A DNA stretch of 38,224 nucleotides from a virus (lineage: Duplodnaviria; Heunggongvirae; Uroviricota; Caudoviricetes): positions 1-38,224 of the IMG/VR virus record IMGVR_UViG_2541047899_000010; one strand, written 5' to 3'. This document shows positions 736 to 28,554 of the stretch, piece after piece; the first letter of the stretch is position 1; every line of letters starts with the position of its first letter. The position numbers and the translations under genes were made by a program. Below the pieces are notes generated by a model, which made no database searches, had not been told where the DNA came from, and saw only the letters and a list, made by a program, of their open reading frames with translations.

Positions 736-1134
736 TCAGATTCCCTCCCAAACTATATATCCTTTGTCTCTTGCCCAACAAACAACTGTGTGGGCTGTAT
801 ATGTGGATGTGAAGCCGCAATAAGAACATGACACTTCATACCGAGTATTGTAGATGTTAATGGGCTCGTTCTCCTTGTGTATGGGAGTGACATATTCCCA
901 ATCATTTGAATCATCATAATCATCAAGTTCAGGGTCTGTGCCGTGAACAACCGTATGTGGAATAAACAAATCTGGGCGCCCACACGAGAGACAAGAGGTT
1001 CTGGCTCCTCTATCTTTAAGGAATTGAATAAATAATTTGGGCGAAATCTGTTGCAGAACCTGCAAATGCCCACGTTCATTATCATTAAGAGACCTGTCTG
1101 CATATGGAAAATCATCAAATTTAAGAGGCTTCAT
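736..1134 (-). CDS. Hypothetical Cys-rich protein (putative zinc ribbon), cargo gene downstream of int
   Basis: ORF 736..1149. ATG at 1134 preferred because GGAG lies 9 nt upstream; this start overlaps the int 3' end by 14 nt. CLSCG and CSYCG cysteine pairs. Its stop at 736..738 directly abuts the GTG at 735 of the next gene. No recognisable family. Confidence 0.5.
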   Translation of the reverse strand: MKPLKFDDFPYADRSLNDNERGHLQVLQQISPKLFIQFLKDRGARTSCLSCGRPDLFIPHTVVHGTDPELDDYDDSNDWEYVTPIHKENEPINIYNTRYEVSCSYCGFTSTYTAHTVVCWARDKGYIVWEGI

Positions 1135-2113
1135 ATAAGGCATCTCCAAGGGGATTAAATCTCACCGCATCCTGCAGGTAATCCGGCGCAAGATGGGCAT
1201 AAATCATCGTTGTCTGAATCTTTGCGTGCCCCAGAATTTTCTGGAGCGTCAGAATATTGCCGCCGTTCATCATGAAATGACTGGCGAAGGTGTGGCGCAG
1301 CGCATGAACAGCCTGGCCGTCAGGAACATCAGGTGCGACCGTTTTGATGACATCGCGAACCAATGGATAATCCAGCGTCGGAAACACCAGTTTCCCGCCC
1401 CGTTTTTTGATCTTTTCAAACAGGCTTTCAGAAATAGGAACGGTACGGTTTTTGCTGTTCTTCGTTTTTGAAAAAGTGATTCGACAATGAAGAACACGGC
1501 GCTGCTCCAGTGCCGCTACCTCGCCCCATCGCGCCCCGGTCGACAGAAGGATTTCGACAGCCAGCCGTTCATCGGGATTTTCAGCCAGTGCATCCAGCAA
1601 CTGAACACATTCAGACTTACTCAGATATCCCATTTCGCGCTCGTTAACCTTCATTCCTTTAAGGCCTTGAACGGGGTTATCGTTAAGAAAATGGCCGGAT
1701 GAGATGAGTGCGGTAAACATCGCGCTTAACGCCCCAATCTCTCGATTTATGGTGCTGGGCTGTATCCCCTGCTCTATCCTGGACACACGTAGCTCGGTGA
1801 GCATCGTTGTATTAAGTTTATGCACGCACGGGTCATCCATTGCCTCACTCAAGCGCAGCAATTTAAGGCGCGTGTTATGCCCTGACTTCATTAGCTGGCC
1901 GTGGTATTTCCACCACAAGTCAATAAGCACTGACAGCGGACGGCGATCAATGGAGTTTCCTTTCCACTCATTGTTATGCTGTTGCGCCAGCACCCACCGC
2001 TCATATAAAACTGCATCCGATTTCGTTTTAAATTTTTTGCGAATGCGTTTGCCTTTACGCCCCTCCGGGCGCATGTCAAGAAGATACCCTCCCGGAATTG
2101 ATTTTATGCTCAT
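1121..2113 (-). CDS. int: Tyrosine site-specific integrase (P2 Int-like)
   Basis: 330 aa from ATG at 2113 (MSIKSIPGGY...). C-terminal catalytic signature HALRHTFASHFMMNGGNILTLQKILGHAKIQTTMIYAHL with the R, H-x-x-R and Y residues of tyrosine recombinases. The upstream part of the 380-aa ORF has no support. Confidence 0.9.
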   Translation of the reverse strand: MSIKSIPGGYLLDMRPEGRKGKRIRKKFKTKSDAVLYERWVLAQQHNNEWKGNSIDRRPLSVLIDLWWKYHGQLMKSGHNTRLKLLRLSEAMDDPCVHKLNTTMLTELRVSRIEQGIQPSTINREIGALSAMFTALISSGHFLNDNPVQGLKGMKVNEREMGYLSKSECVQLLDALAENPDERLAVEILLSTGARWGEVAALEQRRVLHCRITFSKTKNSKNRTVPISESLFEKIKKRGGKLVFPTLDYPLVRDVIKTVAPDVPDGQAVHALRHTFASHFMMNGGNILTLQKILGHAKIQTTMIYAHLAPDYLQDAVRFNPLGDALYEAS

Positions 2114-2162
2114 TCGTGAAACCCCAGCGTTACAAGACCACCATGCCCCCAGCGCTCCATGA

Positions 2163-2474
2163 TTAGCCGGGCTGTGTGCCAGTCTTGCGGGGTTTTTGAG
2201 AAGGCGATGTGCTTTTTGGCCCATCAGGGGAGAGAGACGGACTGATCTGCCCAGCAGCCTCATTTGTTTCGTTACTCATCAACCACGTGGTGTATTTTTT
2301 AAAGTTCGGATGCATTGTGATTTTCAGTAAAACCTCCGTCCCCACACCTCTAATACCAGTCTCATATTGCTTAACTGTACCAACCGCAATACCTATTGAA
2401 TCCGCGAACTTTGCCTGGCTAAGTCCCTCAGATTCTCGAATTGCTTTTAGCTTCTTTGATATCTCTATTGACAT
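2163..2474 (-). CDS. C: P2 C-type immunity repressor (HTH)
   Basis: 103 aa from ATG at 2474 (MSIEISKKLKAIRESEGLSQAKFADSIG...). Length and sequence recalled as similar to P2 C, including the C-terminal ...KYTTWLMSNETNEAAGQISP... segment. Sits upstream of int on the same strand as in P2. Confidence 0.85.
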   Translation of the reverse strand: MSIEISKKLKAIRESEGLSQAKFADSIGIAVGTVKQYETGIRGVGTEVLLKITMHPNFKKYTTWLMSNETNEAAGQISPSLSPDGPKSTSPSQKPRKTGTQPG

Positions 2475-5144: not shown

Positions 5145-5266
5145 GAAACCAGAACATGCACACACAAAAAAACCGCTTGCCATGCCGCAATCGGTCAGGT
5201 TACATTTCCGCTGCACCTCATAAAACGGGTGCCGGGATTCTCAACCCGATACAGAGCAAAGCGCAT

Positions 5267-5290
5267 AACCGCGCCAGCGGTTTTTTTGTG
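5267..5290 (+). terminator. Candidate intrinsic terminator inside the early-operon non-coding gap
   Basis: aaccgc-gcca-gcggtt hairpin followed by ttttttt. Confidence 0.45.
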
Positions 5291-5299: not shown

Positions 5300-5328
5300 T
5301 TGCCACGTCTTTTTCGCGTCAGAATTAT
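5300..5328 (+). promoter_or_regulatory. Candidate sigma70-like promoter downstream of the internal terminator
   Basis: ttgcca, 17-bp spacer, aattat. The -10 is weak. Confidence 0.3.
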
Positions 5329-5466
5329 GGCGGGGCGTACGGGGCCGACTTCGGTCGGGCCGGATTCTTTGCTCTCCGGTGTTGAGAACCCTGTACGTCT
5401 CGCCACCCCGAGATTCTCAACTCTGGATGGTGAGCTATTTCTATCACCGAGCAAAGAGGCCACACC

Positions 5467-5769: not shown

Positions 5770-6159
5770 ATGATTGACGCTCATGACTTCACAAGATGGG
5801 TGCGCACACAGGACACCCGTCTGGCTCCCGTTCTTCAGGGATTATTTGATCTCTACATCCGTGGTCGTGACAACAGAGCACGCACCACAAAACCAGAGAA
5901 TGCAGACACCCTTTATTTCACAGTAGACGACTGCTACCGCGTGGACTTCACACCACACGGGCTGGCGTTGCACTGCCTGACACCACACGGCGAATCACTA
6001 CTGGCGTATTACGACTCCCCGGCCTCCGTATTTGCGGCAATGCTGGCGCATCGCACTGCTGGCGGGTGTGCCTCGCTGAGTGAATACACCGCTGAATTTA
6101 ACCGCCTTTCCACCCTCTTCTCGCAGGAGTGGCAGCGCGTGACGGGATACCAGCCATGA
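5770..6159 (+). CDS. Hypothetical early protein, translationally coupled to gene A
   Basis: 129 aa; its stop overlaps the gene A start (ATGA at 6156). Confidence 0.5.
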   Translation: MIDAHDFTRWVRTQDTRLAPVLQGLFDLYIRGRDNRARTTKPENADTLYFTVDDCYRVDFTPHGLALHCLTPHGESLLAYYDSPASVFAAMLAHRTAGGCASLSEYTAEFNRLSTLFSQEWQRVTGYQP

Positions 6160-8996
6160 GTGAGTTTGCATGGAGCTGGAATGAACCACGGCCAGCCATT
6201 GATCCAGCCAGATTTACGGAGCACAGGCAGGAAACTGAAACCGACCTGCAACGCGCCATCCGTTACTACCTTGAGGCGGACAAAAGGGCACAGAAAGAAC
6301 AGGAAGCGAAGGAAGAAGCCTTTTTCGCACAATCCGCCATGGGTAAAAAACTCATGGCATCCCTTGAGGAAGCCGGACAGCGTGAAAAGCTGGCACAGAG
6401 CATCATCAGTAAGCGCCGGGCAACAGAACAAGACCCGGTAGCCCGTGCCTTTGCCACACTGAAGGCGCTTCCCGTTTATCTGCGAGAACCTCTGAGCCGC
6501 CACCTCTCTTTCCTGCGCAAGAAGCAGGAAGCCGATCGTCAGAAAGGCAAAAAGAGCTGGCAGGCGGAACGCTATGCACGCGGAACCCTGCGCAAAATAT
6601 TCGAACGTCTGGACCGCACCGACAGCCGCTGGCTGACACCGGGTTATCGCTCCCTTGCCGGACGCGAACGCCTGGACGATTTACTTTACCTGCCGCAGCT
6701 CAACAAACACCAGATACAGACGCTGGCCACCATGACGGCGGCGATGTTCAGCAGCACCTTCGAAAAACTCTGCGATGGCTTTGGCGCGACTGATGGCGAA
6801 CTGACCATGGATGTAACGCTGAAGGCGTATCAGATGCTGGCCCGCATGGCGTTACACCTGCACGCCATGCCTCCACATTATGACGCACTGACAACAGACA
6901 AAGACCGGAGGAACGAACCGGACACGGAGCTGCTGCCGGGCGCAATCCTTCGCCTGACTTGTGCGGAATGGTGGAAACGCAAACTGTGGCTGTTACGTTG
7001 CGAGTGGAGAGAAGAACAACTCCGCGCCGCCTGTCTGGTTTCCAGAAAAACATCACCCTATCTGAGCCAGGACGCGTTAAGCGAGTTTCGCGCACAGCGC
7101 GAGAAAACACGCGATTTCCTGAAAAGTTTCATGCTGGAAAATGAAGACGGGTTCACGATTGATCTCGAGACGGTGTATTACGCGGGAGTAAGTAACCCGG
7201 TTCACCGTAAGGCAGAAATGATGTCCACCATGAAGGGACTGGAACTTCTGGCCGAAGCCCGTGGCGACAGAGCGGTGTTTCTGACTGTCACCTGCCCGTC
7301 AAAATACCACGCAACAACGGAGAACGGTCATCCGAACCCCAAATGGAACGGGGCCACCATGCGCGACTCCAGCGATTACCTGGTTAACACGTTTTTTGCG
7401 GCGGTCCGCAAAAAACTGAACCGCGACGGTCTGCGTTGGTATGGCATCCGCACGGTGGAGCCTCACCATGACGGCACTGTGCACTGGCATATGATGGTCT
7501 TTGCACATCCGGACGAGATTGAAACCATCGTGTCCCACGTCTGCGATATTGCCATTCAGGAAGACCGCCACGAGCTGGGCGATGACATAACTCCGCGTTT
7601 TAAGGCAGAGTACGTAGACGGCTCAAAAGGCACACCAACCAGCTACATCGCCACCTACATCGGAAAGAACCTGGACAGCCGCGCCGTGGATGGCATCGAC
7701 CCGAAAACGGGCAAGCCACGCGTTGACCACGAAACCGGAAAATCAATGGCCGAGAGCGTGGAACGCGCCATCGGCTGGGCGCGCCTTCACCGGGTCCGCC
7801 AGTTCCAGTTCTTTGGTATCCCCTCCCGTCAGGTGTGGCGTGAACTGCGCCGCCTTGCCAGCCAGATGGCACGCAACCCGGAAGGCCCGCAACGGCTGAA
7901 GGATGACGCAATGGACGCGGTACTCGCTGCCGCTGATGCCGGATGTTTTGCCACCTACATTGAGAAACAGGGTGGCGTACTTGTTCCACGCAAAGACTAC
8001 CTGATTCGCACCGCCTACGACCTCGCAGATGAGCTGAACGATTACGGTGAACAGAGCGTACAGATTTACGGGATCTGGTCGCCGCTCATTGGGGAGTCTT
8101 CCCGCGTATGCACGCATCCGGATAACTGGAAGCTGGTAAGACGCAAACCGGAAGCGGAAGACAGCGCCCGCGAAAATGGTTTTGACCTTCAGGGCGGCCC
8201 TGCCGCCCCTTGGACTCGTGGCAATAACTGTCCCCGTGTACAGGAAACGGACAACAACGGGACAGAACAGCCGGAAGAACGGCCAGCACCGTGGCCGCAG
8301 CTCCCTGACGGCGTTGAAGTGAACGAATGGATGCGCTCACTGAAACGGCACGAACGCCGGGCGCTGATGCGTTCGCTTCGTGACAAACAGGCAAAAAACA
8401 GCAGTGATGAAATGCAGAGCTGGACACAGAGCCGCAAACAGCAGCGGCCTTTGCCTGATAACCACGAATTACTCGCTAAAGAATGGCGGGAGTCTGCTGA
8501 ATCTCTCGGCCTGCATATCGGTGAACAACAGATGCAGCACCTGTTACGGGGCGGCAGTCTGTACGTTGACGGCAGCATCATTGCACCGCAGGGATTTGAA
8601 ATTGTACGCAAACCGGATACCCGCCCGGACAGCCGAATCACGCAGCTCTGGCAGCGCCTGAGCCGTAATCACGGCGTAAGCAGCACGGAGATCCGCCATA
8701 ACCCGGTCGCCAGCTATCTGGCACAGCTGGGGGCATCAGACCCTGAAGCCGCCGCACGCCTGGCATCCACACTTCAGCAGGACCAGAACACCATGAAAAC
8801 CCCCGTTACCGTGCTTTCTGACATGCTGCGCGCCATCCGCGACGCAGAGCACGCACAGAGAATCAGTGAAACCACTGAACGCGCCCGCCGCAAAGCAGAC
8901 CTGCTGCGGAGTGGCCTGACCAGTGGAAACAAAAAACAGACAGAAACGGGACTCACGAATCCCGTAAATGAGCAAAAAACGCGCCGCGATATATGA
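6156..8996 (+). CDS. A: Rolling-circle replication initiator and nicking endonuclease (P2 gpA-like)
   Basis: 946 aa from ATG at 6156. Rep motifs HWHMMVF (HUH-type) and YIATYIGKN (catalytic Tyr), recalled as conserved in P2 A and the phiX174 A family. Longer than P2 A at the C-terminus. Confidence 0.9.
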   Translation: MSEFAWSWNEPRPAIDPARFTEHRQETETDLQRAIRYYLEADKRAQKEQEAKEEAFFAQSAMGKKLMASLEEAGQREKLAQSIISKRRATEQDPVARAFATLKALPVYLREPLSRHLSFLRKKQEADRQKGKKSWQAERYARGTLRKIFERLDRTDSRWLTPGYRSLAGRERLDDLLYLPQLNKHQIQTLATMTAAMFSSTFEKLCDGFGATDGELTMDVTLKAYQMLARMALHLHAMPPHYDALTTDKDRRNEPDTELLPGAILRLTCAEWWKRKLWLLRCEWREEQLRAACLVSRKTSPYLSQDALSEFRAQREKTRDFLKSFMLENEDGFTIDLETVYYAGVSNPVHRKAEMMSTMKGLELLAEARGDRAVFLTVTCPSKYHATTENGHPNPKWNGATMRDSSDYLVNTFFAAVRKKLNRDGLRWYGIRTVEPHHDGTVHWHMMVFAHPDEIETIVSHVCDIAIQEDRHELGDDITPRFKAEYVDGSKGTPTSYIATYIGKNLDSRAVDGIDPKTGKPRVDHETGKSMAESVERAIGWARLHRVRQFQFFGIPSRQVWRELRRLASQMARNPEGPQRLKDDAMDAVLAAADAGCFATYIEKQGGVLVPRKDYLIRTAYDLADELNDYGEQSVQIYGIWSPLIGESSRVCTHPDNWKLVRRKPEAEDSARENGFDLQGGPAAPWTRGNNCPRVQETDNNGTEQPEERPAPWPQLPDGVEVNEWMRSLKRHERRALMRSLRDKQAKNSSDEMQSWTQSRKQQRPLPDNHELLAKEWRESAESLGLHIGEQQMQHLLRGGSLYVDGSIIAPQGFEIVRKPDTRPDSRITQLWQRLSRNHGVSSTEIRHNPVASYLAQLGASDPEAAARLASTLQQDQNTMKTPVTVLSDMLRAIRDAEHAQRISETTERARRKADLLRSGLTSGNKKQTETGLTNPVNEQKTRRDI

Positions 8997-9072: not shown

Positions 9073-10032
9073 ATGAAAATTTGTATCGACGACGGCTCCA
9101 CCAACATCAAGCTGGCATGGACTGAGAACGGCGAACGCCGCAACGCCATCAGCCCGAACAGCTTCAAGTCGGAATGGTCTGCGCCGTTCGGTGGCACGCA
9201 GCCCGCGAACTACATGCTTGATGGCGTGCGCTATGGTTTTGATCCGGTCAGCGATCGCTTTGTCCAGACGACCGACACGCAATACCAATACAGCGATGTG
9301 AATGTCATTGCCATTCATCACGCGCTGGTCAAATCAGGCATCACGCCACAGGAGGTGGATGTGGTTGTCACCCTGCCACTGAGCGAGTATTTCGACACAA
9401 ACGCACAGCCGGACATGGCCAACATCAACCGCAAAAAAGCGAACGTTATGCGCCCGGTGGAGTACCAGAACGGCGAAGCATTCACTATCCGTAACGTGCG
9501 GGTTATGCCTGAATCCATTCCGGCTGGCTTTAAGGCACTGGCTGACATGAGTCCGTTTGAATCCCTGCTGATTGTGGATTTGGGCGGAACCACGCTGGAT
9601 GTGGCAAAGGTTCAGGGGCAACTGGCAGGTATCAGCCAGGTGTTTTGCGATCCACACGTAGGCGTTTCTCTGATGGCCGATGCCGTACTGTCGGTGATGG
9701 CCACTAACGGTATGCGCACCAGTCACCACATCGCCAATACCATTATCGAACATCGCCATGATGAAGCCTGGCTGCGCCAGCACATCCACAATGACGCGCA
9801 TTACGACAGCCTGATGGCGGTTATTCGTGAAAAGGAAGAAACACTGAAACAACGAGTGATCCGCGCGCTGGCGGGTTTTTCGGGTTACGGGCGGGTGATG
9901 GTTGTCGGTGGAGGGGCGGAGATTGTGGCACCCGCTATCCGCGAAGCCTGCGGAGTTAATGCGACTTTCATCGCGGACGGGGTGCCACAGTTTGCTCTGG
10001 TCAATGGTTTGTACGCAATGGACAAGGAGTAA
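9073..10032 (+). CDS. parM: ParM/StbA-family actin-like segregation ATPase
   Basis: 319 aa. N-terminus MKICIDDGSTNIKLAW and later YSDVNVIAIHHAL, VDLGGTT and VVGGGA motifs recalled as matching plasmid R1 ParM (actin fold). AAGGAAAA upstream of the ATG. Confidence 0.8.
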   Translation: MKICIDDGSTNIKLAWTENGERRNAISPNSFKSEWSAPFGGTQPANYMLDGVRYGFDPVSDRFVQTTDTQYQYSDVNVIAIHHALVKSGITPQEVDVVVTLPLSEYFDTNAQPDMANINRKKANVMRPVEYQNGEAFTIRNVRVMPESIPAGFKALADMSPFESLLIVDLGGTTLDVAKVQGQLAGISQVFCDPHVGVSLMADAVLSVMATNGMRTSHHIANTIIEHRHDEAWLRQHIHNDAHYDSLMAVIREKEETLKQRVIRALAGFSGYGRVMVVGGGAEIVAPAIREACGVNATFIADGVPQFALVNGLYAMDKE

Positions 10033-10036
10033 ACCA

Positions 10037-10348
10037 ATGACGACACCAACCAGACGGATAAGTTTCTATCTGAAGCCCGCCGCCGTCAAGAACGAAGGCG
10101 AAGCATGCGCCTGGCTGGACAGCCTTACACCAGAAGCCCGCAAAAGCGGCCAACGCGTGGCTTTTCTGGCCGGGCTGGCACTTCTGAAAATGAATCCGGC
10201 AGAGGCTTACCGACTGGCTGCATGGGCTGACGATGAGGCGTTATCAGTGACACAAACCAGGGCAGAACGCCACATGTTACAGACAGCCCCCACCGCACAG
10301 ATAACCAGTCAGATGGCCGGAAATATCCGGGCGTTATTTCCCGATTAG
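10037..10348 (+). CDS. parR: ParR-like adaptor (putative ribbon-helix-helix centromere-binding protein)
   Basis: 103 aa; ATG 7 nt after AAGGAG and 4 nt after the parM stop. The N-terminal RISFYLKP beta-strand pattern resembles R1 ParR (recalled). Confidence 0.55.
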   Translation: MTTPTRRISFYLKPAAVKNEGEACAWLDSLTPEARKSGQRVAFLAGLALLKMNPAEAYRLAAWADDEALSVTQTRAERHMLQTAPTAQITSQMAGNIRALFPD

Positions 10349-10417
10349 AACTTTGCACGGGAGGTTTCCAGTTCTGAAAACAATCAACAAATAAGGAGTC
10401 GAACGTCAAAGATATAA

Positions 10418-10445
10418 GGCCGCCTAGCTGGCGGTCTTGTGTCTT
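10418..10445. terminator. Bidirectional hairpin terminator between convergent parMR and ATPase/Toprim operons
   Basis: ggccgcc-tagc-tggcggtc hairpin with T-rich flanks on both strands. Confidence 0.45.
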
Positions 10446-10478
10446 AAAATATGTTTATCTTAATGAGGACTATTATTT

Positions 10479-10997
10479 TTATAAAAAATAATCATCATGA
10501 GAGGAAACATGAAAATTATAATCTCTCAATTGGGGGATAATCCCTCTACTCCAAAGCAACGTTTTATTTAGTCCAAGTCCATCTAATTTCATCATCCTGT
10601 TGCGCAGCGCAATGAATTCATTCTTGAAGTTATCTGCAGAGATGATCTTTGGGCAAAAACAAGAATACAACTTTCTATTACTTACACCACAAGCATTGGC
10701 AAGCTCATCCTCAAAATTGCTTGTTTGTTGAAATAGGTGGATTGTGTGTTTTTTCGCCTTTAATAGATTGAGATTATTCTTAAATCTATCAAGATTCTCA
10801 ATCCTATCCGTATCAAAAACCACTATGATTTCGCTATTTTCGGTTAATGCTGGCATGTATTTATTTATATTAACATTCCATAAATTAGCAATTACTATTT
10901 TCTTAATAGGATAGCCTAGCAATGTTTTGAAATCCTGAAACAATGCTTTTTCCGTATCTCCCTCAACAAGAATAATAGCAAATTTCTTAACTGCCAT
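10479..10997 (-). CDS. Small Toprim-like protein (DUF4276/RloB-like), putative nuclease partner of the ATPase
   Basis: 172 aa from ATG at 10997, 2 nt after the ATPase stop and preceded by GAGGA. N-terminal ILVEGDTE (conserved Glu) and VVFDTDR (DxD) fit a Toprim-like fold. Locus is markedly AT-rich. Confidence 0.6.
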   Translation of the reverse strand: MAVKKFAIILVEGDTEKALFQDFKTLLGYPIKKIVIANLWNVNINKYMPALTENSEIIVVFDTDRIENLDRFKNNLNLLKAKKHTIHLFQQTSNFEDELANACGVSNRKLYSCFCPKIISADNFKNEFIALRNRMMKLDGLGLNKTLLWSRGIIPQLRDYNFHVSSHDDYFL

Positions 10998-10999
10998 AA

Positions 11000-12199
11000 T
11001 CAATCCTCAAATAGCATCTCTTCGATTAATGAAACGTCAGGTATTGTAGCAAAACAGTCATTTTTTACTTTATTTAAAAGATTGCGATCATTCTTTTTAT
11101 GATGTGTGGTAGCTTCAACAAAAGTGGTTACACCATCTACTTTTTTAGTAAAAGTATATGAATGCGTAGGCAGATCTAAGCTCAAGATATCATAATTATG
11201 TGTGGTGTATATAAATTGACCATATCTGCAAAGCTTAGATATAATCAGCGTGACCATCATTTTTTCTAATTCAGTATGAGTGAAGGCCATTTTCTCATCC
11301 AAAAAGTACACCCCACTGCAAGGGAAATTGAACTCTCGCTCTTCTATTTTATCTTCAAGCACTCCTGACAGGAGATGGGATATTTTTACTGCCTCATAAG
11401 TACCACGAGACAGTCTATCTTTATTTGTTATATCACCTTCCATATCAATAATAACTCTATCTCCATTATTGAAGACTACTGAATAACCCTGCAAATCCTC
11501 CTTTCCCTCATCATCTTTAAGAGTGAGTCCTGAGACAGATTTAACAGTATTGTCAAAGGTTTTTAATATGCTATTAAGCACATTCTTCTTAATTCGTGAT
11601 ATTTTATCCGTGTTCTCTTGGTTTTCAGATAGAATGAAATGCCAACCAAGAACAAAGTCCAAATCCTCTAAATATTGGGAAAATTCTTTTGAGTTAGCGT
11701 TTTCGGTTGAAAAAAATCTATTTTGACCATTTAATTCAAACTTTTGCGCATCCCACACAGCATCCAATCTTTTGGTCGTCTTTGCGCATGATTCCGAGCT
11801 TCTTAAATCAACAGATGCCATTGCAATTTTTTCTACAGCAACAGACTCATCCATAGCCCTAAGCCAGACACCTGCCCTAAACAAACATTTTAAATGACTC
11901 TGGAAAAAGTCAACCTCTATATATGCAGGTTTTCTTTTGTCAGTAATTTTTAACGGTTCTGGATTGAAAACACCACTACTGAGAAAACGCAACACAGAAA
12001 GCATCACGCGACCAAGAGATGTTTTACCAGATGCATTAGCACCAGAAACGATGCAAACCTTTTTGAAGTAGAACTTTTCAAATCCATCAATGTACTCACC
12101 TTCCAGTGAGCTGTTGATCGGGGGTCTGGAGAAGCTTAAGTCAAGGATGCTATTTTCAAAGCAAAACAGATTATCGATTCTGATTTTTGTAAAAGCCAT
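11000..12199 (-). CDS. ABC-type ATPase (AAA_15/AAA_21-like) of a candidate anti-phage module
   Basis: 399 aa. Walker A GANASGKTS, Walker B VYFLDE, H-loop TTHN, with a long helical insert between A and B as in OLD, AriA and AbiL-type ATPases. AAGGTGG upstream of the ATG. AT-rich. Confidence 0.75.
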   Translation of the reverse strand: MAFTKIRIDNLFCFENSILDLSFSRPPINSSLEGEYIDGFEKFYFKKVCIVSGANASGKTSLGRVMLSVLRFLSSGVFNPEPLKITDKRKPAYIEVDFFQSHLKCLFRAGVWLRAMDESVAVEKIAMASVDLRSSESCAKTTKRLDAVWDAQKFELNGQNRFFSTENANSKEFSQYLEDLDFVLGWHFILSENQENTDKISRIKKNVLNSILKTFDNTVKSVSGLTLKDDEGKEDLQGYSVVFNNGDRVIIDMEGDITNKDRLSRGTYEAVKISHLLSGVLEDKIEEREFNFPCSGVYFLDEKMAFTHTELEKMMVTLIISKLCRYGQFIYTTHNYDILSLDLPTHSYTFTKKVDGVTTFVEATTHHKKNDRNLLNKVKNDCFATIPDVSLIEEMLFED

Positions 12200-12377
12200 T
12201 TTGTTCCACCTTTTGGAAGTAAATATTGCTACCTGTTGAGTTTACATGTAATGAGCTGGTAAGCAATACAGGGATTCGATTTAGCGCACAATAGTGCACA
12301 AATTTGCACAATTTTTTTGAACGAATTTTTGCCCTTCTGGCCCGCGTGGCGGCTGGATCCGTCAGGGATCCGTGCGT

Positions 12378-12404: not shown

Positions 12405-12735
12405 GCAGGTGACGGGGGAACAGCCCGCGTTTCAGGGGGTAAATAGCATCCCCTGAACGATGTCGCAGCGACACAACAGAATGGCTGTATTTCTCACGCT
12501 GAGCGTGAAAAAGACGTGAGGGCTTTTGATTTGATGGGGTGGCAGATAAGGCCGTCAAAATCGCACTGAGGCGGCGAGAACATGCAGTCAGCGCGATGGG
12601 ATTGTGTAAGAGTCTGACTGTCGATGATGGCAATCAGCAGGAAAGCATCGTGAAATTATCTGACTGATACAGGAGCTGGAGAGTCGGGGCATAAATTTTT
12701 TATGCCCCGGCGAAGCAGCAGACAAGCGAAGCGCG

Positions 12736-13782
12736 TCAGGATGTGGGCTGGGTGTCTAACAGTGCGTAAGGGTTAAAGCGGATCACCTCTTCGCCAAGCC
12801 AGTCATTGATGTGCTTCATGGCCTCCATGACGGGCATCAGCTCGTTAATTGCGTAAACCCGCGCGGCCTTCTCCACATCACCAAACGCACTTTTTTCGCC
12901 CGGCATCGCCCCCATCAGTTGCGGCGGAACGCGGTGCGCAGCCAGCACATCATCACGGGATGCCGCCTTAACATTCATGAACTCATCCTTTGCGGTGATC
13001 TGCTGGAACGGCAAAATTTGCACCCCCTCTTTGCCCCCGTTAGGCGCATGAATGAGCACGTTTTTAAACGCACCACCACCACGCGCACCCTGTAACGTTT
13101 CTTTCAGGGAGTCCATGCTTTCGCGGTTTATCTGCGCTGCACCGATGTAGATGATGCACCCGGCGTGGGATCCATTGTCGTAATACAGTTTTCTGAACAT
13201 GTCCGCCGAATGAGACAGGCTGGCCGAGAGTAATGCACCAAGATATTCCGGCATGCCGTAGATTTCCTGGTTAATGTCAGGATTCATCAGGTGGCACACT
13301 TTGCCAGGGCGAAACTGAAACGCATCCTTGCCATCCTGCACATACCACCATGATTCAAGATCACTTCCGCGTCGCATGTATTTCGCCAGGGCGTGCCGTA
13401 ATTTAAGCGGTTCGCCGAGCATATTGCTCCGAAGCTCAAGGAATGCGTTACCGAACACAAACCAGTCCAGCGCCAGCGCCGAGAAATCCTGCCGGGAAAG
13501 CAGCGGGTGCGGAATATAGCAACCGAGCAATACATTGCGCTTAAAGTAAAGCGCAGACTGATGCCAGGACGTTTGCCGGGCAGCTCTTGCCAGACCGTAC
13601 CAGTCCACCGGGGTTTCATACCATCGCCCGTTATCAGCACAGTACATATTGTCCAGCAGGTCATGCCCGGTCAGGCGATAAGGACCATCAAATGTGAATG
13701 CACTGAGCGATGATTCTTTCCTGAGCGCATCAGCGAGATCAATGCGTGAACTCATGCGCACTTTTTTATTTTTTCTGCTCAT
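12736..13782 (-). CDS. Q: Portal protein (P2 gpQ-like)
   Basis: 348 aa, the size of P2 Q; sits just downstream of the terminase large subunit on the leftward strand as in P2. Confidence 0.85.
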   Translation of the reverse strand: MSRKNKKVRMSSRIDLADALRKESSLSAFTFDGPYRLTGHDLLDNMYCADNGRWYETPVDWYGLARAARQTSWHQSALYFKRNVLLGCYIPHPLLSRQDFSALALDWFVFGNAFLELRSNMLGEPLKLRHALAKYMRRGSDLESWWYVQDGKDAFQFRPGKVCHLMNPDINQEIYGMPEYLGALLSASLSHSADMFRKLYYDNGSHAGCIIYIGAAQINRESMDSLKETLQGARGGGAFKNVLIHAPNGGKEGVQILPFQQITAKDEFMNVKAASRDDVLAAHRVPPQLMGAMPGEKSAFGDVEKAARVYAINELMPVMEAMKHINDWLGEEVIRFNPYALLDTQPTS

Positions 13783-15533
13783 CAGAACTCCATAACCGTG
13801 AAACGCTCGTTTTCTCCTTCGCCGCCAATTGGTTCGTTAATGACAGCAAGCATGGTTGCCCACGCAAGGTCGCCGTGGCTGATCCCCCTCGCGCGGTCCG
13901 TTTCGTAAGTGATAAAGCCGCCCGGTGTTTTCACCTTACGCACGGCGTTAAAGGCCGCGACCAGCTCGCGTTCGGCGCGATCGTATTCCCACCGTCCGGC
14001 ACGCATTATTTGCAGCATTTTCAGTACCAGCGACCGTTTGGATGACAGCGTGAAGGTGTACGGAATAGCAGCAGGGAAAAACCGCTTCACTATCTGATAA
14101 ACAGCCTCCCCGTTCCCGCCCGTCACATCAATGCCGATGTGTTCCACGTTGTAGCGACACGTGAACTCTTCAATGACTCTGGCCTGTTCTTCAAACTCCA
14201 GCCCCTGAACGCGTCGCGTCTCCACCGTTCGAAAACGGCCACCAGGAACAGCCGGAGGAACCACCACGGACACAGCGCCGCTGTCGCCGTTGCCACTGCT
14301 GCCGTTTGCGTCATACCCAATCCATACCGGACGATTCCCCATCGGGCGGGGAGCAAAAGGTTTCCAGTCTTTCCAGTCGTCGTATCCGTCAACACCGCAG
14401 CCAATCAGGATATTCAGGTTAAATGCCGATTCCCCTTCGCGGACAAACTCACACATATAGAGATTGAGGAACTCGTCTTCGGTGTTTTCATCACGAATTT
14501 CGTCGATATCGGTGTGTTTCCAGCCGTGTTTAACCACATCTTCCAGCGTGACAATTTGCCGCCACGTCCGGTCAGGGCAGATAAGCCCGTTATGCAGCGT
14601 TTTCCAGTCCACAGAAAAACGCTGGCGTTTATGCGTGGCCTTTTTCTCGTTCCAGCGGTCGCCGTTCCAGTAGGCGTATGCCTCGTGCGTTTCGGTGGAT
14701 GGCGTGGAGAAGTAGGTGCGCCGCAGTCCGCTGAGGGTTGCCATAGCGCCAGCCACCTTGCGCAGTTCAGCAAAGCGACTGACCCAGAAAAATTCATCAA
14801 AATAAAAATTGCCCGTATAGGACTGTGCCGACGCAGCAGAAGTGCCGAGAAAATGCAGCTCTGCGCCGTTGGAGAGGATGATTTTATCGCCCCCTTTCAG
14901 CTCCACATCAACTTCAGCCGCGGCCTTCTGAATAATGCTTTTAAACTGGAACGCCTGACGACGCGACGCAGACAAAAAAATCTGGTTACGCTGGTAAGGT
15001 TGCGCCACATCGTCACGCAGCGCCATCAGCAGAGCTTCCTGTGCAAAATACCAGGTCGCCCCAATCTGTCGGGATTTCAGGATCATCCTGTTACGTATCC
15101 CGGCTTCCCTGCAAAGGGTCAGGGAGTCAAACCAGCCCCGCTGATGCCACTCCAGCCTGCTGATGATTTTTTCCCGCAGTGCGGCAATCTGTTCCGGCGT
15201 GAAATGATTTTTGAGTTTTTTCGCCCGGCCTTTCTTTCCTGTGGCCGTCGCATCCGGCTGGCCATCATGCAGTTTTTTAAGCTGCCGGGTCAGCAGGTCT
15301 ATTTCCTTGAAGTCACCACCTGTTTTATTCTGTTTTTCAGTGAGCTGGATGAGGCGCGCATCGATGGACTGCGTGACACGCTGCACGGGTGGCGTTTCAT
15401 CCCACTGGTCGCGTTTTTTCCACGCATAAATCGTGTTCGGGTTTATTCCCATCAGACGTGATATTTCTGCGGGCGGATAACCCTGCCAGTAAAGTTGCCG
15501 CGCACGCTGGCGCACAAAAGCGTCCTGAATCAT
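13782..15533 (-). CDS. P: Terminase large (ATPase) subunit (P2 gpP-like)
   Basis: 583 aa with GGGGGAG upstream of the ATG. Divergent from O across a 154-bp region, which is the P2 PP/PO arrangement. Confidence 0.85.
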   Translation of the reverse strand: MIQDAFVRQRARQLYWQGYPPAEISRLMGINPNTIYAWKKRDQWDETPPVQRVTQSIDARLIQLTEKQNKTGGDFKEIDLLTRQLKKLHDGQPDATATGKKGRAKKLKNHFTPEQIAALREKIISRLEWHQRGWFDSLTLCREAGIRNRMILKSRQIGATWYFAQEALLMALRDDVAQPYQRNQIFLSASRRQAFQFKSIIQKAAAEVDVELKGGDKIILSNGAELHFLGTSAASAQSYTGNFYFDEFFWVSRFAELRKVAGAMATLSGLRRTYFSTPSTETHEAYAYWNGDRWNEKKATHKRQRFSVDWKTLHNGLICPDRTWRQIVTLEDVVKHGWKHTDIDEIRDENTEDEFLNLYMCEFVREGESAFNLNILIGCGVDGYDDWKDWKPFAPRPMGNRPVWIGYDANGSSGNGDSGAVSVVVPPAVPGGRFRTVETRRVQGLEFEEQARVIEEFTCRYNVEHIGIDVTGGNGEAVYQIVKRFFPAAIPYTFTLSSKRSLVLKMLQIMRAGRWEYDRAERELVAAFNAVRKVKTPGGFITYETDRARGISHGDLAWATMLAVINEPIGGEGENERFTVMEF

Positions 15534-23944: not shown

Positions 23945-26095
23945 ATGAGTACCACAACACGTAAATTTAAAACCGTTATCACCGATACGGGTGCCAAAAA
24001 ATTAGCTCAGGCAGCCGCGCCAGATGGTAAGCCTGTCCGCCTGACTCATATGGCCGTGGGCGACGGTGGCGGTACATTGCCCACACCTGACAGTAAGCAG
24101 ACCCGTCTGGTGCATGAGGTGTGGCGACATACTGTTAATCGCGTCATCCTGGACGCAACACATCAGAACCGTATTATTGCAGAGCTGGTTATTCCTCCTG
24201 AAACGGGCGGATTCTGGATCCGGGAAATTGGTGTATTTGATGAGCACGGCGATTTAATCGCGGTGGGCAATACTGCCGAAAGTTACAAGCCAGCCGTTGC
24301 CGAAGGGTCCGGTCGTGCACAAACATTTCGCACCATTCTGACCGTATCCAGCACTGCCACCGTGGCGCTTACCGTGGATAACACCATGGTGATGGCCACA
24401 GTGGATTACGTGGATGACAAACTGAAAGAGCATGAACAGTCACGACGTCACCCGGACGCCTCGCTGACCGCAAAAGGCTTTGTTCAACTCAGTAGCGCTA
24501 CTAACAGCGTGTCTGAAACGCAGGCTGCAACGCCGAAAGCAGTAAAGGCCGCGTATGACCTTGCTAACGGTAAATATACTGCGCAGGATGCCAGCACGAC
24601 GCGAAAAGGCCTTGTCCAGCTCAGTAGCGCCACCAACAGCACGTCTGAAACGCAGGCTGCAACGCCGAAAGCAGTAAAGGCCGCGTATGACCTTGCTAAC
24701 GCAAAATATACCGCTCAGGACGCCACGACGGCACAAAAAGGGATAGTCCAGCTCAGTAGTGCCACCAACAGCACGTCTGAAACACTGGCCGCGACATCGA
24801 AAGCGGTTAAGGCGGTAATGGATGAAACGAACAAGAAAGCGCCCTTAAACAGTCCTGCGCTGACCGGAACGCCAACAACGCCAACTGCGCGACAGGGAAC
24901 GAATAATACCCAAATCGCAAGCACGGCTTTCGTTATGGCTGCGATTGCCGCCCTTGTAGATTCGTCACCTGACGCACTGAATACGCTGAACGAGTTAGCG
25001 GCGGCGCTGGGAAACGACCCGAATTTTGCGACCACCATGACTAACGCGCTTGCGGGTAAGCAACCGAAAGATGCCACCCTGACGGCGCTGGCCGGGCTTG
25101 CTACTGCGGCAGACAGGTTTCCGTATTTTACGGGGAATGATGTCGCCAGCCTGGCAACCCTGACAAAAGTCGGGCGGGATATTCTTGCGAAATCGACCGT
25201 TGCTGCCGTTATCGAATACCTCGGTTTACAAGAAACGGTAAACAGGGCTGGTAACGCCGTGCAAAAAAATGGCGATACTTTGTCCGGTGGGCTTACTTTT
25301 GAAAATGACTCAATCCTTGCCTGGATTCGAAATACTGACTGGGCGAAGATTGGATTTAAAAATGATGCCGATGGTGACACTGATTCATACATGTGGTTTG
25401 AGACAGGCGACAACGGCAATGAATATTTCAAATGGAGAAGCAAACAAAGCACCACAACAAAAGACCTGATGACGCTGAAATGGGATGCACTAAATATTCT
25501 TGTTAATGCCGTCATTAATGGCAGCCTTGGAGTTGGTACGACGAATGCGTTAGGTGGTAGCTCTATTGTTTTTGGTGATAATGATACCGGATTTAAACAG
25601 AATGGAGACGGTATTCTTGATGTTTATGCTAATAGTCAGCGTGTATTCCGCTTTCAGAATGGAGTGGCTATTGCTTTTAAAAATATTCAGGCTGGGGATG
25701 GTAAAAAATTCACGCTATCCAGCTCCAACAACTCCACGAAGAACGTAGGGTTTAATTTATGGGGCGCTTCATCAAGACCAACTGTTGCAGAGCTTGGTGA
25801 TGATTCAGGCTGGCATTTCTATAGTCAGCGAAATACAGATAACTCGGTGATATTTGCTGTAAACGGTCAGATACAACCCAGCAACTGGGGGAATTTTGAT
25901 TCACGCTATGTGAGAGATGTCAGACTTGGCACGCGTGTTGTTCAAACTATGCAAAAAGGCGTGATGTATGAAAAATCAGGCCATGCAATTACGGGGCTTG
26001 GCATTGTCGGCGAAGTTGATGGCGATGATCCGGCTGTGTTCAGACCAATACAAAAATACATCAATGGCACATGGTATAACGTTGCACAGGTATAA
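23945..26095 (+). CDS. H: Tail fibre protein H with constant N-terminal part and invertible C-terminal part (current orientation)
   Basis: 716 aa with three tandem 39-aa phage tail-fibre repeats (QLSSATNSTSETQAATPKAVKAAYDLAN). The crossover site at 25209..25234 lies in frame within the gene (...AAVIEYLGLQE...). Confidence 0.9.
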   Translation: MSTTTRKFKTVITDTGAKKLAQAAAPDGKPVRLTHMAVGDGGGTLPTPDSKQTRLVHEVWRHTVNRVILDATHQNRIIAELVIPPETGGFWIREIGVFDEHGDLIAVGNTAESYKPAVAEGSGRAQTFRTILTVSSTATVALTVDNTMVMATVDYVDDKLKEHEQSRRHPDASLTAKGFVQLSSATNSVSETQAATPKAVKAAYDLANGKYTAQDASTTRKGLVQLSSATNSTSETQAATPKAVKAAYDLANAKYTAQDATTAQKGIVQLSSATNSTSETLAATSKAVKAVMDETNKKAPLNSPALTGTPTTPTARQGTNNTQIASTAFVMAAIAALVDSSPDALNTLNELAAALGNDPNFATTMTNALAGKQPKDATLTALAGLATAADRFPYFTGNDVASLATLTKVGRDILAKSTVAAVIEYLGLQETVNRAGNAVQKNGDTLSGGLTFENDSILAWIRNTDWAKIGFKNDADGDTDSYMWFETGDNGNEYFKWRSKQSTTTKDLMTLKWDALNILVNAVINGSLGVGTTNALGGSSIVFGDNDTGFKQNGDGILDVYANSQRVFRFQNGVAIAFKNIQAGDGKKFTLSSSNNSTKNVGFNLWGASSRPTVAELGDDSGWHFYSQRNTDNSVIFAVNGQIQPSNWGNFDSRYVRDVRLGTRVVQTMQKGVMYEKSGHAITGLGIVGEVDGDDPAVFRPIQKYINGTWYNVAQV
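24464..24820. repeat. Three tandem 117-bp repeats within tail fibre gene H
   Basis: A 55-nt core (gaaacgcaggctgcaacgccgaaagcagtaaaggccgcgtatgaccttgctaacg) recurs exactly at about 24518 and 24648, with a third diverged copy. Confidence 0.8.
25209..25234. other. Left 26-bp gix/hix-like crossover site for the DNA invertase
   Basis: TTATCGAATACCTCGGTTTACAAGAA; inverted match to the site at 27887..27912; resembles the Mu gix sequence (recalled). Confidence 0.8.
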
Positions 26096-26098
26096 ATC

Positions 26099-26626
26099 AT
26101 GCAGCATTTAAAAAACATTACTGCTGGCAATCCTAAAACAAAAGAGCAATATCAGCTAACAAAGAATTTTGATGTTATCTGGTTGTGGTCAGAAGATGGG
26201 AAAAACTGGTACGAGGAATTAAAGAACTTTCAGGAAGACACAATAAAAATTCTTTATGACGAGAATAATATTATTGTCGCCATCACCAAAGATGCCTCCA
26301 CGCTTAACCCTGAAGGCTATAGCGTCGTTGAAGTTCCTGATATTACAGCTAATCGCCGTGCCGATGATTCAGGTAAGTGGATGTTTAAGGACGGGGCTGT
26401 AGTTAAGCGGATTTATACGGCAGACGAACAGCAACAACAGGCCAAATCACAAAAGGCCGCATTACTTTCCGAAGCTGAATCAGTTATCCAGCCACTGGAA
26501 CGCGCTGTCAGGCTGAACATGGCGACGGATGAGGAACGCGCACGACTGGAGTCATGGGAACGCTACAGCGTTCTGGTCAGCCGTGTGGATACAGCAAATC
26601 CCGAATGGCCACAAAAGCCTGAATAA
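26099..26626 (+). CDS. G: Tail fibre assembly chaperone G
   Basis: 175 aa; N-terminus [22 protein letters not shown]; immediately follows H. Confidence 0.85.
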
Positions 26627-26654: not shown

Positions 26655-27188
26655 TCATTCAGGTTGTTTGGGAAATGTTACTGGCAGGCTGGAGGTGTCT
26701 GTGGATTCGACTTTCTGCGCGTAGAGCATCCACTCTGTTAATTTTTGTTTATTCTCGTCGGAAATGATACCCAGCCGTAGCTGTGAGTCCCATAGCTGGG
26801 TTTTATCCCTGACGAGCTGTAGCAAGCTTTGCTTTTCATTTTCCGCTTGTTGCCTCTGCTCTTCCTCGGTATAAGTTCGCTTTACCACTACGCCATCTTT
26901 GAACATCCATTTACCCGAAATATCAGCCCGGCGATTTGCTGTAATATCAGGTAATTCAACGACGCTTGCGCCTTCTGGATTAATTGCTGAAACATCCTTT
27001 TCAATACAAATAATAACGCCGTTATGGTCATAGACCATTTTCAACGTATCAGACTGGAAATTCTTTTGTTCCTCATACCAGTTTTTTCCATCCTCTGTAT
27101 AAAGCCATTTGATGTTAAATTGCTTTGTTAGCTGATATTGCTCTTTTGTTTTAGGATTGCCAGCAGTAATGTTTTTTAAGTGCATCAT
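26655..27188 (-). CDS. Alternative tail fibre assembly chaperone G' (expressed after inversion)
   Basis: 177 aa; N-terminus [22 protein letters not shown] is near-identical to G for about 22 residues, then diverges. Confidence 0.8.
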   Translation of the reverse strand: MMHLKNITAGNPKTKEQYQLTKQFNIKWLYTEDGKNWYEEQKNFQSDTLKMVYDHNGVIICIEKDVSAINPEGASVVELPDITANRRADISGKWMFKDGVVVKRTYTEEEQRQQAENEKQSLLQLVRDKTQLWDSQLRLGIISDENKQKLTEWMLYAQKVESTDTSSLPVTFPKQPE

Positions 27189-27190
27189 CG

Positions 27191-27904
27191 TTAAATACTC
27201 CCCGCGTTATACCACGTCCCATTAATGCAATACTGAATTGGCCTTGCCTGAGTTGTATCAATTAATTCGTCACGGTTTCCGTTAACTGAACCTGTAACGA
27301 CATAACCTGACTTATCAGACCAACCAGGCCCATTCCATGTTTGAACAGATGACAGTCCTCCTAAACGGACACCTGTAATAAATCGTGAATTACATTCCGC
27401 TTTAGTATATGCACCAACATCTCCTGCTGAAGGTTTTCTGGTGGTGGTGTAAAATTCGGACCAGTCGGCTTCAAAACCATAACCATCACGGGCTGAACGA
27501 TAAAAAATACCGCCATTTTTATAATTAATCCGAAACTGAGCTGCAGGACAACTTCCTTCTCCCATATAAAAATGAATAATTAACGTTGATGCACCACTAA
27601 TAGTTGCGTTATAGGCTCCGCTACTCCAGTTCCATCCAACTGCTTTATCATTCGCAACGGTGCTTCCTGTTTTCCCTAAGGCAAACGCACCAACATGACT
27701 TGCTTTTAATGTGATATCGGAGGAACCATCAAAAGCCACATTGCTTATTTTCCTGGCAGTTTTTAATTTTGCAGCTGTAGAAGCATTGCCGGATAGTTCA
27801 CCAGAAAGGCCACCGCTGAATGTTTGTCGATTAGTCCAGGTATTCGCTGTACTGAGTAACGGTATTTTCTCCCCGCTTGTGCCGAGTTCTCGTAAACCGA
27901 GGTT
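27191..27904 (-). CDS. Alternative tail fibre C-terminal segment Hv' (promoterless, fuses to the H constant part after inversion)
   Basis: The frame is open from 27904 and continuous with the H frame through the crossover site (predicted junction ...IEYLGLRELGTSGEK...). No start codon of its own. The 5' boundary is approximate. Confidence 0.7.
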   Translation of the reverse strand, partial: NLGLRELGTSGEKIPLLSTANTWTNRQTFSGGLSGELSGNASTAAKLKTARKISNVAFDGSSDITLKASHVGAFALGKTGSTVANDKAVGWNWSSGAYNATISGASTLIIHFYMGEGSCPAAQFRINYKNGGIFYRSARDGYGFEADWSEFYTTTRKPSAGDVGAYTKAECNSRFITGVRLGGLSSVQTWNGPGWSDKSGYVVTGSVNGNRDELIDTTQARPIQYCINGTWYNAGSI

Positions 27905-27912: not shown

Positions 27913-27966
27913 TGGCCGTTTCTGACCTGCATGGCATGATTTACGCTTTTGGACGGGAGATTCAGC

Positions 27967-28554
27967 GTGCTGATTGGCTATGTAAGGGTATCAACAAATG
28001 ACCAGAATACAGACCTGCAACGAAACGCTCTTGTTTGTGCAGGATGTGAACAAATATTTGAAGATAAATTAAGCGGGACAAAGACAGACCGACCGGGATT
28101 AAAACGCGCTTTAAAGCGCCTTCAAAAAGGTGACACGCTGGTTGTCTGGAAACTGGATCGCCTCGGGCGAAGCATGAAACATCTGATTTCTCTCGTCGGG
28201 GAACTACGGGAGCGAGGGATTAATTTTCGCAGTCTGACCGACAGCATAGATACATCTTCTCCAATGGGGCGTTTTTTCTTCCACGTGATGGGTGCCCTGG
28301 CTGAAATGGAACGTGAATTAATTGTTGAACGTACACTGGCCGGACTGGCGGCAGCGCGTGCACGGGGGCGCACAGGCGGACGTCGACCGAAGCTGACAAA
28401 AGAACAGCATGAGCAAATAGCAAGGCTGATCAAAAACGGGCACGACAGAAAACAACTGGCAATAATTTACGGCATTGGTATATCGACGATTTATCGTTAC
28501 CACCCCGCAGGAGAATCAAGCGGAACAATAGAGAAGAGTCAGGAAACAAAATAA
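27967..28554 (+). CDS. Serine DNA invertase (Gin/Hin/Cin/Pin family)
   Basis: GTG start giving (M)LIGYVRVSTNDQNTDLQRNAL with the catalytic Ser in the canonical position; C-terminal HTH (GISTIYRY). About 195 aa. Adjacent to the right crossover site. Confidence 0.9.
   Translation: MLIGYVRVSTNDQNTDLQRNALVCAGCEQIFEDKLSGTKTDRPGLKRALKRLQKGDTLVVWKLDRLGRSMKHLISLVGELRERGINFRSLTDSIDTSSPMGRFFFHVMGALAEMERELIVERTLAGLAAARARGRTGGRRPKLTKEQHEQIARLIKNGHDRKQLAIIYGIGISTIYRYHPAGESSGTIEKSQETK

Follow-up and report, generated by a model that had tools for sequence, protein, structure and literature searches.

A two-gene ATPase-Toprim cassette, probably a defence-type module, in the gpA-gpQ hotspot of a P88-like prophage

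What kind of element is the AT-rich pair of minus-strand genes at positions 10479-12199 of IMG/VR virus record IMGVR_UViG_2541047899_000010? The window analysed here is the whole 38,224-nucleotide stretch of that record, and an earlier note, made from its letters alone, had proposed that the pair encodes an ATP-binding cassette (ABC) ATPase and a Toprim-like nuclease, located where phage P2 carries old and tin. We found that this ATPase-Toprim cassette is real and intact, and that it belongs to the group of split ABC-ATPase and Toprim systems which comprises AbiL, MADS3-4, RloAB and PARIS and which occurs in fused form as OLD and GajA. The cassette is a horizontally acquired, self-contained two-gene cargo module, and it is probably functional as a module of the defence type.

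The two coupled genes lie exactly at the coordinates first given for them. The ATPase gene occupies 11000..12199 (-), begins with ATG and encodes 399 amino acids (aa). The partner is listed as an open reading frame (ORF) at 10479..11003 (-) with a TTG start and 174 aa; comparison with related sequences places its true start almost certainly at the ATG at 10997, giving a gene of 172 aa at 10479..10997 (-). The ATG is preferred because all 12 aligned relatives start there (each with M-x-x-K-K), because the RefSeq annotation is likewise 172 aa, and because a GAGGA Shine-Dalgarno sequence is found 6 nt 5' of this codon. With that start the ATPase stop codon and the partner ATG are separated by a gap of 2 nt (TGAttATG), so the genes are tightly coupled; the TTG start would give a 4-nt overlap. 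The G+C fraction is 0.33-0.36 over 10501-12000 and approximately 0.34 over 10348..12285, as against 0.53-0.58 in adjacent phage genes, and the AT-richness relative to the phage core that was first noticed is thus borne out. As full-length homologues of both ORFs are found in several phyla, with catalytic-type residues invariant, the two ORFs are more than a product of chance.

Sequence profiles clearly identify the 399-aa protein as a member of the family described by the AbiLi model. It scores 34.5 bits against Pfam AAA_15 (cut-off 32.1), and its best PADLOC model is AbiLi (PDLC02335; 93.4 bits, E = 3.3e-27, residues 3-392), with further matches to mad3 (41.8 bits), AriA (31 bits) and PDC-M12A; these results agree with the initial description of an ABC/SMC-like ATPase. 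Among 45 diverse relatives, AbiLi is matched by all 45 (best E = 6e-32), mad3 by 43 and AriA by 20. Walker A (GANASGKTS, residues 53-61), Walker B (VYFLDE, 297-302) and H-loop (TTHN, 332-335) are all present as reported, and residue conservation across 45 homologues of 34-87% identity marks these and a signature-like motif as follows.

12020..12043 (-): Walker A, GANASGKT, G53-T60; G53, N55, G58 and K59 invariant in 45 homologues
11399..11416 (-): ABC signature-like motif, RLSRGT, R262-T267; R262, S264, G266 and T267 invariant in 45 homologues
11294..11311 (-): Walker B, VYFLDE, V297-E302; D301 and E302 invariant in 45 homologues
11195..11206 (-): H-loop, TTHN, T332-N335; T332, T333, H334 and N335 invariant in 45 homologues

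An AlphaFold model of the ATPase (predicted local distance difference test, pLDDT, 88.5; predicted template modelling score, pTM, 0.88) was matched by Foldseek (probability 1.00; E = 4e-11 to 1e-7) to PtuA of Septu and of retrons, SMC heads, Rad50/SbcC and Thermus OLD. The approximately 200 residues between Walker A and the signature had been described as a long helical insert; in the model they form a compact mixed alpha/beta region, with no long coiled coil. A search of the PDB with the ATPase family profile returned P-loop matches only, and hence no close solved relative. By hhalign, the family aligns from signature through H-loop with residues 257-343 of P2 Old (probability 28-33%).

The 172-aa partner is well supported, by profile and residue evidence, as a stand-alone OLD-type Toprim protein. 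In Pfam it matches OLD-like_TOPRIM (PF20469) at 24.2 bits (cut-off 23.2; residues 9-66) and falls under the cut-off for RloB (PF13707; 17.6 against 31.5 bits). Its matches in PADLOC and NCBIfam correspond to the Toprim segments of fused proteins of the OLD type, namely positions 389-474 of 596 in GajA, 350-474 of 623 in ATPase-Toprim_I-B and 378-469 of 679 in the retron Eco8 effector; mad4 scores 20 bits. AbiLii, which is matched at E <= 0.01 by 44 of 72 relatives of the partner (best E = 5.9e-7), is the only PADLOC family that recurs among the members, and the Pfam families that recur are all of Toprim type or related to it (OLD-like_TOPRIM in 10, RloB in 5, DUF3226 in 3 and Toprim in 2). Public annotations of the relatives differ, including RloB, DUF4276, DUF4435 and TOPRIM, and this indicates that the family falls between existing Pfam models.

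Conservation was assessed over 72 members with 23-55% identity to the protein of the window. D62, D64 and E98 do not vary among them, and conservation is at least 90% at E12, G13, E16, N38, N75, Q91, E96 and K125; with PF20469 above its cut-off and E12, D62, D64, E96 and E98 conserved, the protein has the core expected of an OLD-family Toprim. The two motifs on which the proposal of a Toprim-like partner had drawn, ILVEGDTE (8-16) and VVFDTDR (59-65), are both present and overlap the first two of the following features.

10950..10967 (-): Toprim glutamate motif, VEGDTE, V11-E16, right after strand 1; aligned counterparts VEGKTE in P2 Old and VEGKND in 1t6t
10806..10814 (-): DxD motif of the Toprim domain, D62-T-D64, where strand 3 ends; aligned counterparts DCD in P2 Old and DLD in 1t6t
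10704..10712 (-): second acidic cluster, E96-D-E98, following strand 4

In the structural model (pLDDT 87), strands at residues 7-11, 31-36, 56-62 and 85-91 alternate with helices in a beta-alpha-beta core; E12 follows strand 1 and D62xD64 closes strand 3. This is the signature arrangement of Toprim domains, in which strand 1 is followed by a glutamate and strand 3 by a DxD. The sole PDB match of the family profile is 1t6t (E = 0.0015, through VEG and FDxD), a fragment that is itself a clear Pfam Toprim domain (44.5 bits), and hhalign places the family onto residues 392-540 of P2 Old. GajA, ATPase-Toprim_I-B, the Eco8 effector, P2 Old and 1t6t are all matched via the same E and DxD motifs. The proposal of a Toprim-like partner therefore stands at the level of profiles, where OLD-like_TOPRIM is passed and RloB, GajA, AbiLii and mad4 give weaker matches; it drew no such support from the fold search, which returned generic CheY/flavodoxin-like alpha/beta folds and no OLD or Toprim chain among the matches listed. 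As the fold search is not Toprim-specific, the assignment rests on profiles, conserved residues and strand topology.

The partner had appeared short enough for the pair to be regarded as a possibly undescribed variant. An exhaustive profile search yielded 342 cluster representatives, and among the best 150 of these, 141 are 155-200 aa, all are 85-199 aa, and an ATPase fusion is seen in none. A length of about 170 aa is thus the norm for the family, and the same pair has already been catalogued. Rousset et al. 2022 give it in their Table S5B as P2-hotspot system #90, labelled "AAA_15/AAA_21/SMC_N | RloB" with 37 occurrences (PMC9122126); the ATPase of that entry differs from that of the window by two residues, and the partner is identical. 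The locus is also in Table S5A of the same study, with both genes labelled hypothetical (PMC9122126). A literature search by RefSeq protein accessions found no citing papers. Both the hotspot and the kind of cassette were therefore known before, and the cassette itself had been catalogued.

The pairing of the two genes is conserved in several phyla (Proteobacteria, Firmicutes, Spirochaetes and Mollicutes). When hidden Markov models of both families were run over all fetched loci, the partner was found directly downstream and on the same strand in 23 of the 26 genome loci that match the ATPase strongly, which represent Enterobacterales, Pasteurellaceae, Neisseriaceae, Alcaligenaceae, Lachnospiraceae, Bacilli, Treponema and Acholeplasmatales, and likewise in all 29 viral contigs with downstream sequence. 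The family is rare among deposited phage genomes and plasmids, the phage genomes holding just two distant homologues (33% and 27% identity). A paralogous ATPase-Toprim pair (43% and 42% identical) is present in E. coli GCA_041269625.1, at 6001..7736 of the locus we refer to as L003, with chromosomal genes on one side and the integrase of a lambdoid (RecE/DicB-type) prophage on the other; further cargo sites in E. coli prophages are thus used by the family as well.

The window belongs to the P88-like group (Xuanwuvirus, Peduoviridae) of P2-family prophages, and in a near-identical E. coli copy of it the integration site is beside btuC. The genes that frame the cassette are listed here with the cargo segment itself.

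1121..2263: integrase, followed by a helix-turn-helix repressor
6129..8996 (+): gpA-like replication endonuclease, early operon
9073..10032 (+): parM, early operon
to 10348 (+): stbB, last gene of the early operon
10348..12285 (1,938 bp, no strand): AT-rich variable cargo segment, bounded by its breakpoints relative to other P88-like prophages
12736..13782: portal gene Q, to the right of the cassette
13782..15533: terminase gene P, followed by late genes

The cassette is convergent with the early operon (gpA, parM and stbB, all on the plus strand), as had been described. In P2 the corresponding region reads A, orf91, tin(-), old(-), cosR, and the position of the cassette between gpA and gpQ, together with its orientation, is that of old and tin, so the placement proposed in the earlier note holds. 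The stretch between gpA and gpQ was defined as a hotspot of defence systems by Rousset et al. 2022 and is known experimentally to carry such systems (PMC9122126). Other P88-like prophages align with the window up to 10347 and resume at 12286 (97-99% identity), with unrelated DNA between: one strain has a single 135-aa gene there, and phage PhiR44_2 has six small genes. Because these alignments break so sharply, the cargo segment can be set at 10348..12285, holding solely the two genes; its location, with replication gene A on one side and portal gene Q on the other, and its variation among related prophages are characteristic of the P2-like cos-proximal hotspot. The hotspot flanks were found in 1111 of 5426 complete E. 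coli genomes and the cassette in six records, two of which are the same strain.

Copies of the ATPase with 84-88% protein identity (76-78% at the DNA level) lie between Q and A in other peduoviruses, whose portal proteins are 48-70% and whose gpA is approximately 30% identical to those of the window. That such similar copies are found amid diverged portal and gpA genes indicates that the cassette moves between peduovirus lineages at the same hotspot, and about 115 bp of upstream region travels with it. A separate feature of the hotspot is the ParM (StbA) and Plasmid_stab_B partition pair (9073..10348, +) that ends the early operon inside it. Such a pair is present in about a quarter of P2-like phages according to Rousset et al. 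(PMC9122126), and here it hints at a plasmid-like maintenance option.

Three candidate regulatory elements border the two genes.

12204..12218 (-): 15-nt palindrome TTCCAAAAGGTGGAA (TTC-N9-GAA), ending 4 nt 5' of the ATPase ATG and overlapping the Shine-Dalgarno sequence GGTGGA
12239..12266 (-): possible sigma-70 promoter, TTGCTT, 16 nt, TAAACT; low confidence
10420..10434 (-): GC-rich hairpin CCGCCagctaGGCGG, a possible terminator 45 nt past the stop codon, between the convergent operons

Of 37 family loci from several phyla, 29 have a perfect 15-nt TTC-N9-GAA inverted repeat whose arms are at least 4 nt long, as against 1.0 on average and 5 at most in mononucleotide shuffles; most of the loci which do not have a perfect repeat differ by one mismatch. 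The motif occurs once in the window (0.03 expected). In Proteobacteria it takes the form TTCCA..TGGAA, 4-9 nt 5' of the ATG; the forms seen in Firmicutes and Mollicutes are TTCAA..TTGAA, TTCG..CGAA and TTCT..AGAA, mostly 16-30 nt 5' of the ATG and followed by a canonical GGAGG. Many loci have -10-like sequences 6-12 nt upstream of the palindrome, which would therefore sit at or just after the start of the transcript. The fourth pair covaries (CG in 20, AU in 5, UG in 3, GC in 2 and UA in 2); this needs to be interpreted cautiously, as the alignment was anchored by hand on the repeat and is thereby biased in favour of the structure. Some Firmicutes versions fold strongly as RNA (-9.5 kcal/mol, z = -3.8), whereas the window hairpin is weak (-3.8 kcal/mol, z = -0.5), so we claim no self-sufficient RNA structure for the latter; an Rfam scan gave no match at the cassette locus. 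The constant span of 15 nt and the invariant TTC and GAA are more in keeping with a site to which a protein binds, whether as a DNA operator or as an RNA hairpin, than with a free RNA structure, and the palindrome may thus be an autoregulatory operator or a leader hairpin. Neither the ATPase nor the partner has an obvious DNA-binding domain. We found no published description of this leader palindrome.

The possible promoter was read by eye, and a consensus promoter scan upstream of the ATPase gave nothing convincing, for which reasons it is assigned low confidence; its TTGCTT and TAAACT blocks are conserved in the copies of the cassette in other peduoviruses. The hairpin CCGCCagctaGGCGG came from a scan for terminator-like sequences and is not conserved in other copies. 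Beyond these elements, three TGTGC(A/G) repeats about 10 nt apart form an overlapping palindrome, AATAGTGCACAAATTTGCACAATTTT, at the right junction of the cargo segment (12282..12315); they are conserved upstream of the cassette copies in other peduoviruses and may be a regulator-binding or cos-associated site. A perfect hairpin of 11 bp, CGGGGCATAAA-ttt-TTTATGCCCCG, at 12685..12709, closely follows portal gene Q on the minus strand and is probably the terminator of the Q-P operon.

How might such a cassette act? By analogy with better-known systems, we consider it fairly probable that it is an anti-phage ATPase-Toprim system acting by abortive infection, and we have considerably less confidence in any specific trigger or substrate. 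In PARIS, AriA sequesters AriB, a Toprim tRNase (PMC11464382; PMC12409363); P2 OLD has been reported as a tRNase whose tetramer opens to cleave tRNA (bioRxiv 10.64898/2026.07.10.737580); and TOPRIM_OLD toxins were neutralised by AAA ATPases in NetFlax assays (PMC10440598). On the model of PARIS and P2 OLD, the 399-aa ATPase would oligomerise and keep the 172-aa Toprim nuclease inactive until a phage-derived trigger, whether a protein or an aberrant nucleic acid, brought about its ATP-dependent release or activation. A two-metal Toprim site formed by E12, D62, D64, E96 and E98 would then cleave tRNA or DNA and abort the infection, which would shield the population of lysogens, and the prophage they carry, from competing phages. 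The cassette would probably be expressed from its own upstream region, with possible autoregulation through the TTC-N9-GAA palindrome at the ribosome-binding site.

Several observations weigh against this reading. The Toprim score of the partner in Pfam exceeds the cut-off by just 1 bit, and its match to AbiLii is weak (21.7 bits, E = 6e-5) and covers 25 of 170 profile positions. The hhalign probabilities against P2 Old are low (28-33%), a result of the template being a single sequence. The mechanism of sequestration and release, like the substrate, is pure analogy, and related Toprim effectors differ in this respect: GajA and Vibrio class-1 OLD act on DNA, AriB and P2 OLD on tRNA. Furthermore, the cassette is not identifiable among the systems that Rousset et al. 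reported as cloned, tested or validated (PMC9122126), and a literature search found no experiment on it.

We also considered, tentatively and with rather low confidence, that the pair may be a distinct minimal split-OLD clade, matched by the AbiLi model of PADLOC at the level of profiles only and with its own regulation, in which the palindrome, shared across phyla, would serve as an operator or leader hairpin bound by the ATPase-Toprim complex and so couple expression to the state of activation. It is more speculative again that the palindrome mimics a stem-loop substrate of the nuclease.

The NetFlax assays also bear on a different reading, which we regard as unlikely: that the cassette is a toxin-antitoxin-like addiction module, with the Toprim protein as toxin and the ATPase as antitoxin, which would stabilise a prophage or plasmid state rather than exclude phages. 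AAA ATPases and TOPRIM_OLD proteins behaved as antitoxin-toxin pairs in those assays (PMC10440598), the ParM/StbB partition pair adjoins the cassette, and a palindrome at the start of the operon resembles the autoregulatory operators of toxin-antitoxin systems. However, single-gene deletions of PARIS were not toxic, whichever gene was removed (PMC9122126), and the family is also found elsewhere in phages and chromosomes, at sites that have no partition genes. Toxin-antitoxin behaviour and abortive defence are compatible and not mutually exclusive.

RecF belongs to the SMC-like ABC ATPases and RecR contains a Toprim domain, and this domain parallel, together with the match of the ATPase model to Rad50/SbcC heads and the proximity of the cassette to the cos/packaging region, could suggest a RecF/RecR- or Rad50-like DNA-processing pair that serves phage replication, recombination or packaging near cos; we consider this very improbable and have rejected a RecF/RecR-like repair function, as no RecF, RecR or SbcCD model in Pfam or NCBIfam is matched at E <= 1, the best matches are all defence models, the AT-rich composition indicates a foreign origin, and the cassette is missing from more than 99% of related prophages and is therefore dispensable.

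The leader palindrome, a concrete regulatory feature, is the most original element of these results. The analysis also confirms that a reading of the sequence by itself picked out genuine defence-type cargo at a phage hotspot, and it adds a compact representative to the ABC-ATPase and Toprim superfamily, in which PARIS, OLD and Gabija differ in trigger and substrate and have only recently been explained. So small a pair (399 and 172 aa) may suit the study of how an ATPase sensor restrains a Toprim nuclease.

The prophage has other features of note outside the cassette. A single 527-aa ORF lies after gpD at the right end of the prophage (35792..37375, +), in an AT-rich island at 35.5-37.5 kb (G+C 0.33-0.37). 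It matches GmrSD_N/DUF262 above cut-off (49 bits) and, weakly and below cut-off, a C-terminal HNH domain (19.8 bits); by sequence it is a second candidate for defence cargo, resembling a type IV restriction enzyme. In the early region, two Rfam families score above their gathering thresholds, the isrK Hfq-binding RNA at 5213..5287 (+; 62.8 bits) and the C4 antisense RNA at 5323..5410 (+; 78.5 bits), as in P1/P7-type immunity regions. The stretch from 23945 to 28554 resembles an invertible host-range segment of the Gin/Cin type and is made up of the following genes.

23945..26095 (+): tail fibre gene
26099..26626 (+): assembly gene
26655..27188 (-): inverted Caudo_TAP gene
27191..27739 (-): inverted gp37_C fibre tip
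27949..28554 (+): serine recombinase/invertase

Among known systems, P2 Old, a class-1 OLD protein, shares with the cassette the hotspot, the strand orientation and the domain order. It is, however, one polypeptide of 586 aa and only remotely similar (hhalign probability about 30%), whereas the window has two genes; class-1 OLD was rejected because ATPase and Toprim are in two ORFs with a stop codon between them and the best 150 relatives are all unfused. Gabija, in which a fused GajA adjoins the UvrD-like helicase GajB, was likewise rejected, there being no fused GajA and no helicase ORF within 10348..12285. MADS3-4 and RloAB are similar in that they too pair an ATPase with a small Toprim protein; RloAB was rejected as RloB falls under its cut-off and the neighbours are parM/stbB and the portal gene, with no type I restriction-modification genes, and MADS as the cargo segment holds two genes only and no other mad genes. 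Septu PtuA and retron-associated PtuA are the best structural matches of the ATPase (Foldseek E = 4e-11), and Septu, whose PtuA is paired with the HNH nuclease PtuB, was rejected since the partner is a Toprim protein with no HNH match.

PARIS is the best-understood mechanistic precedent, in that a sensor hexamer releases a tRNase, and like the cassette it consists of a split ABC ATPase (AriA) followed by a Toprim effector (AriB), often at P2/P4 hotspots. That the cassette is PARIS proper, triggered by anti-restriction proteins such as Ocr, nonetheless seems to us highly improbable. The architecture (an AAA_15 ATPase, then a Toprim protein) and the mobile-element hotspot habitat are the same, and AriA is matched weakly (31 bits; 20 of 45 family members). 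The published rule asks for an ATPase with AAA_15 at 32 bits or more or AAA_21 at 27 or more, and for a partner with DUF4435 (PF14491) at 27 bits or more (Rousset et al. 2022, PMC9122126). The ATPase scores 34.5 bits for AAA_15, but the partner has no match to DUF4435 in Pfam at E <= 1, on which ground PARIS was rejected. The AbiLi score is three times that of AriA, and both proteins are smaller than those of PARIS (399 and 172 aa), AriB having been described as 35 kDa (PMC11464382).

The closest comparison is with AbiL (AbiLi/AbiLii) of Lactococcus lactis, as represented by its PADLOC models. AbiL, known since 1999, is likewise bicistronic, the gene for an ABC/Rad50-like ATPase preceding that for a small Toprim protein of the OLD type, and is likewise carried on a mobile element; the genes of the window are adjacent and co-oriented in that same order. 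The vehicles differ, a lactococcal plasmid in the one case and a P2-like prophage of a Gram-negative host in the other. A tblastn search of a plasmid collection with the window ATPase and with a Firmicutes member of the family gave no Lactococcus matches, so that it is the PADLOC profile models which provide the sole link to AbiL. Burman et al. 2024 grouped AbiL and MADS3-4 with the ABC-ATPase and Toprim systems (PMC11464382), and Deep et al. described AbiL, RloAB and a Nostoc system as structurally distinct from PARIS and uncharacterised (PMC10802264), a conclusion which a 2026 lactococcal review shares. On this comparison of sequences, AbiL is the closest model, and AbiL-type is the best label for the cassette.

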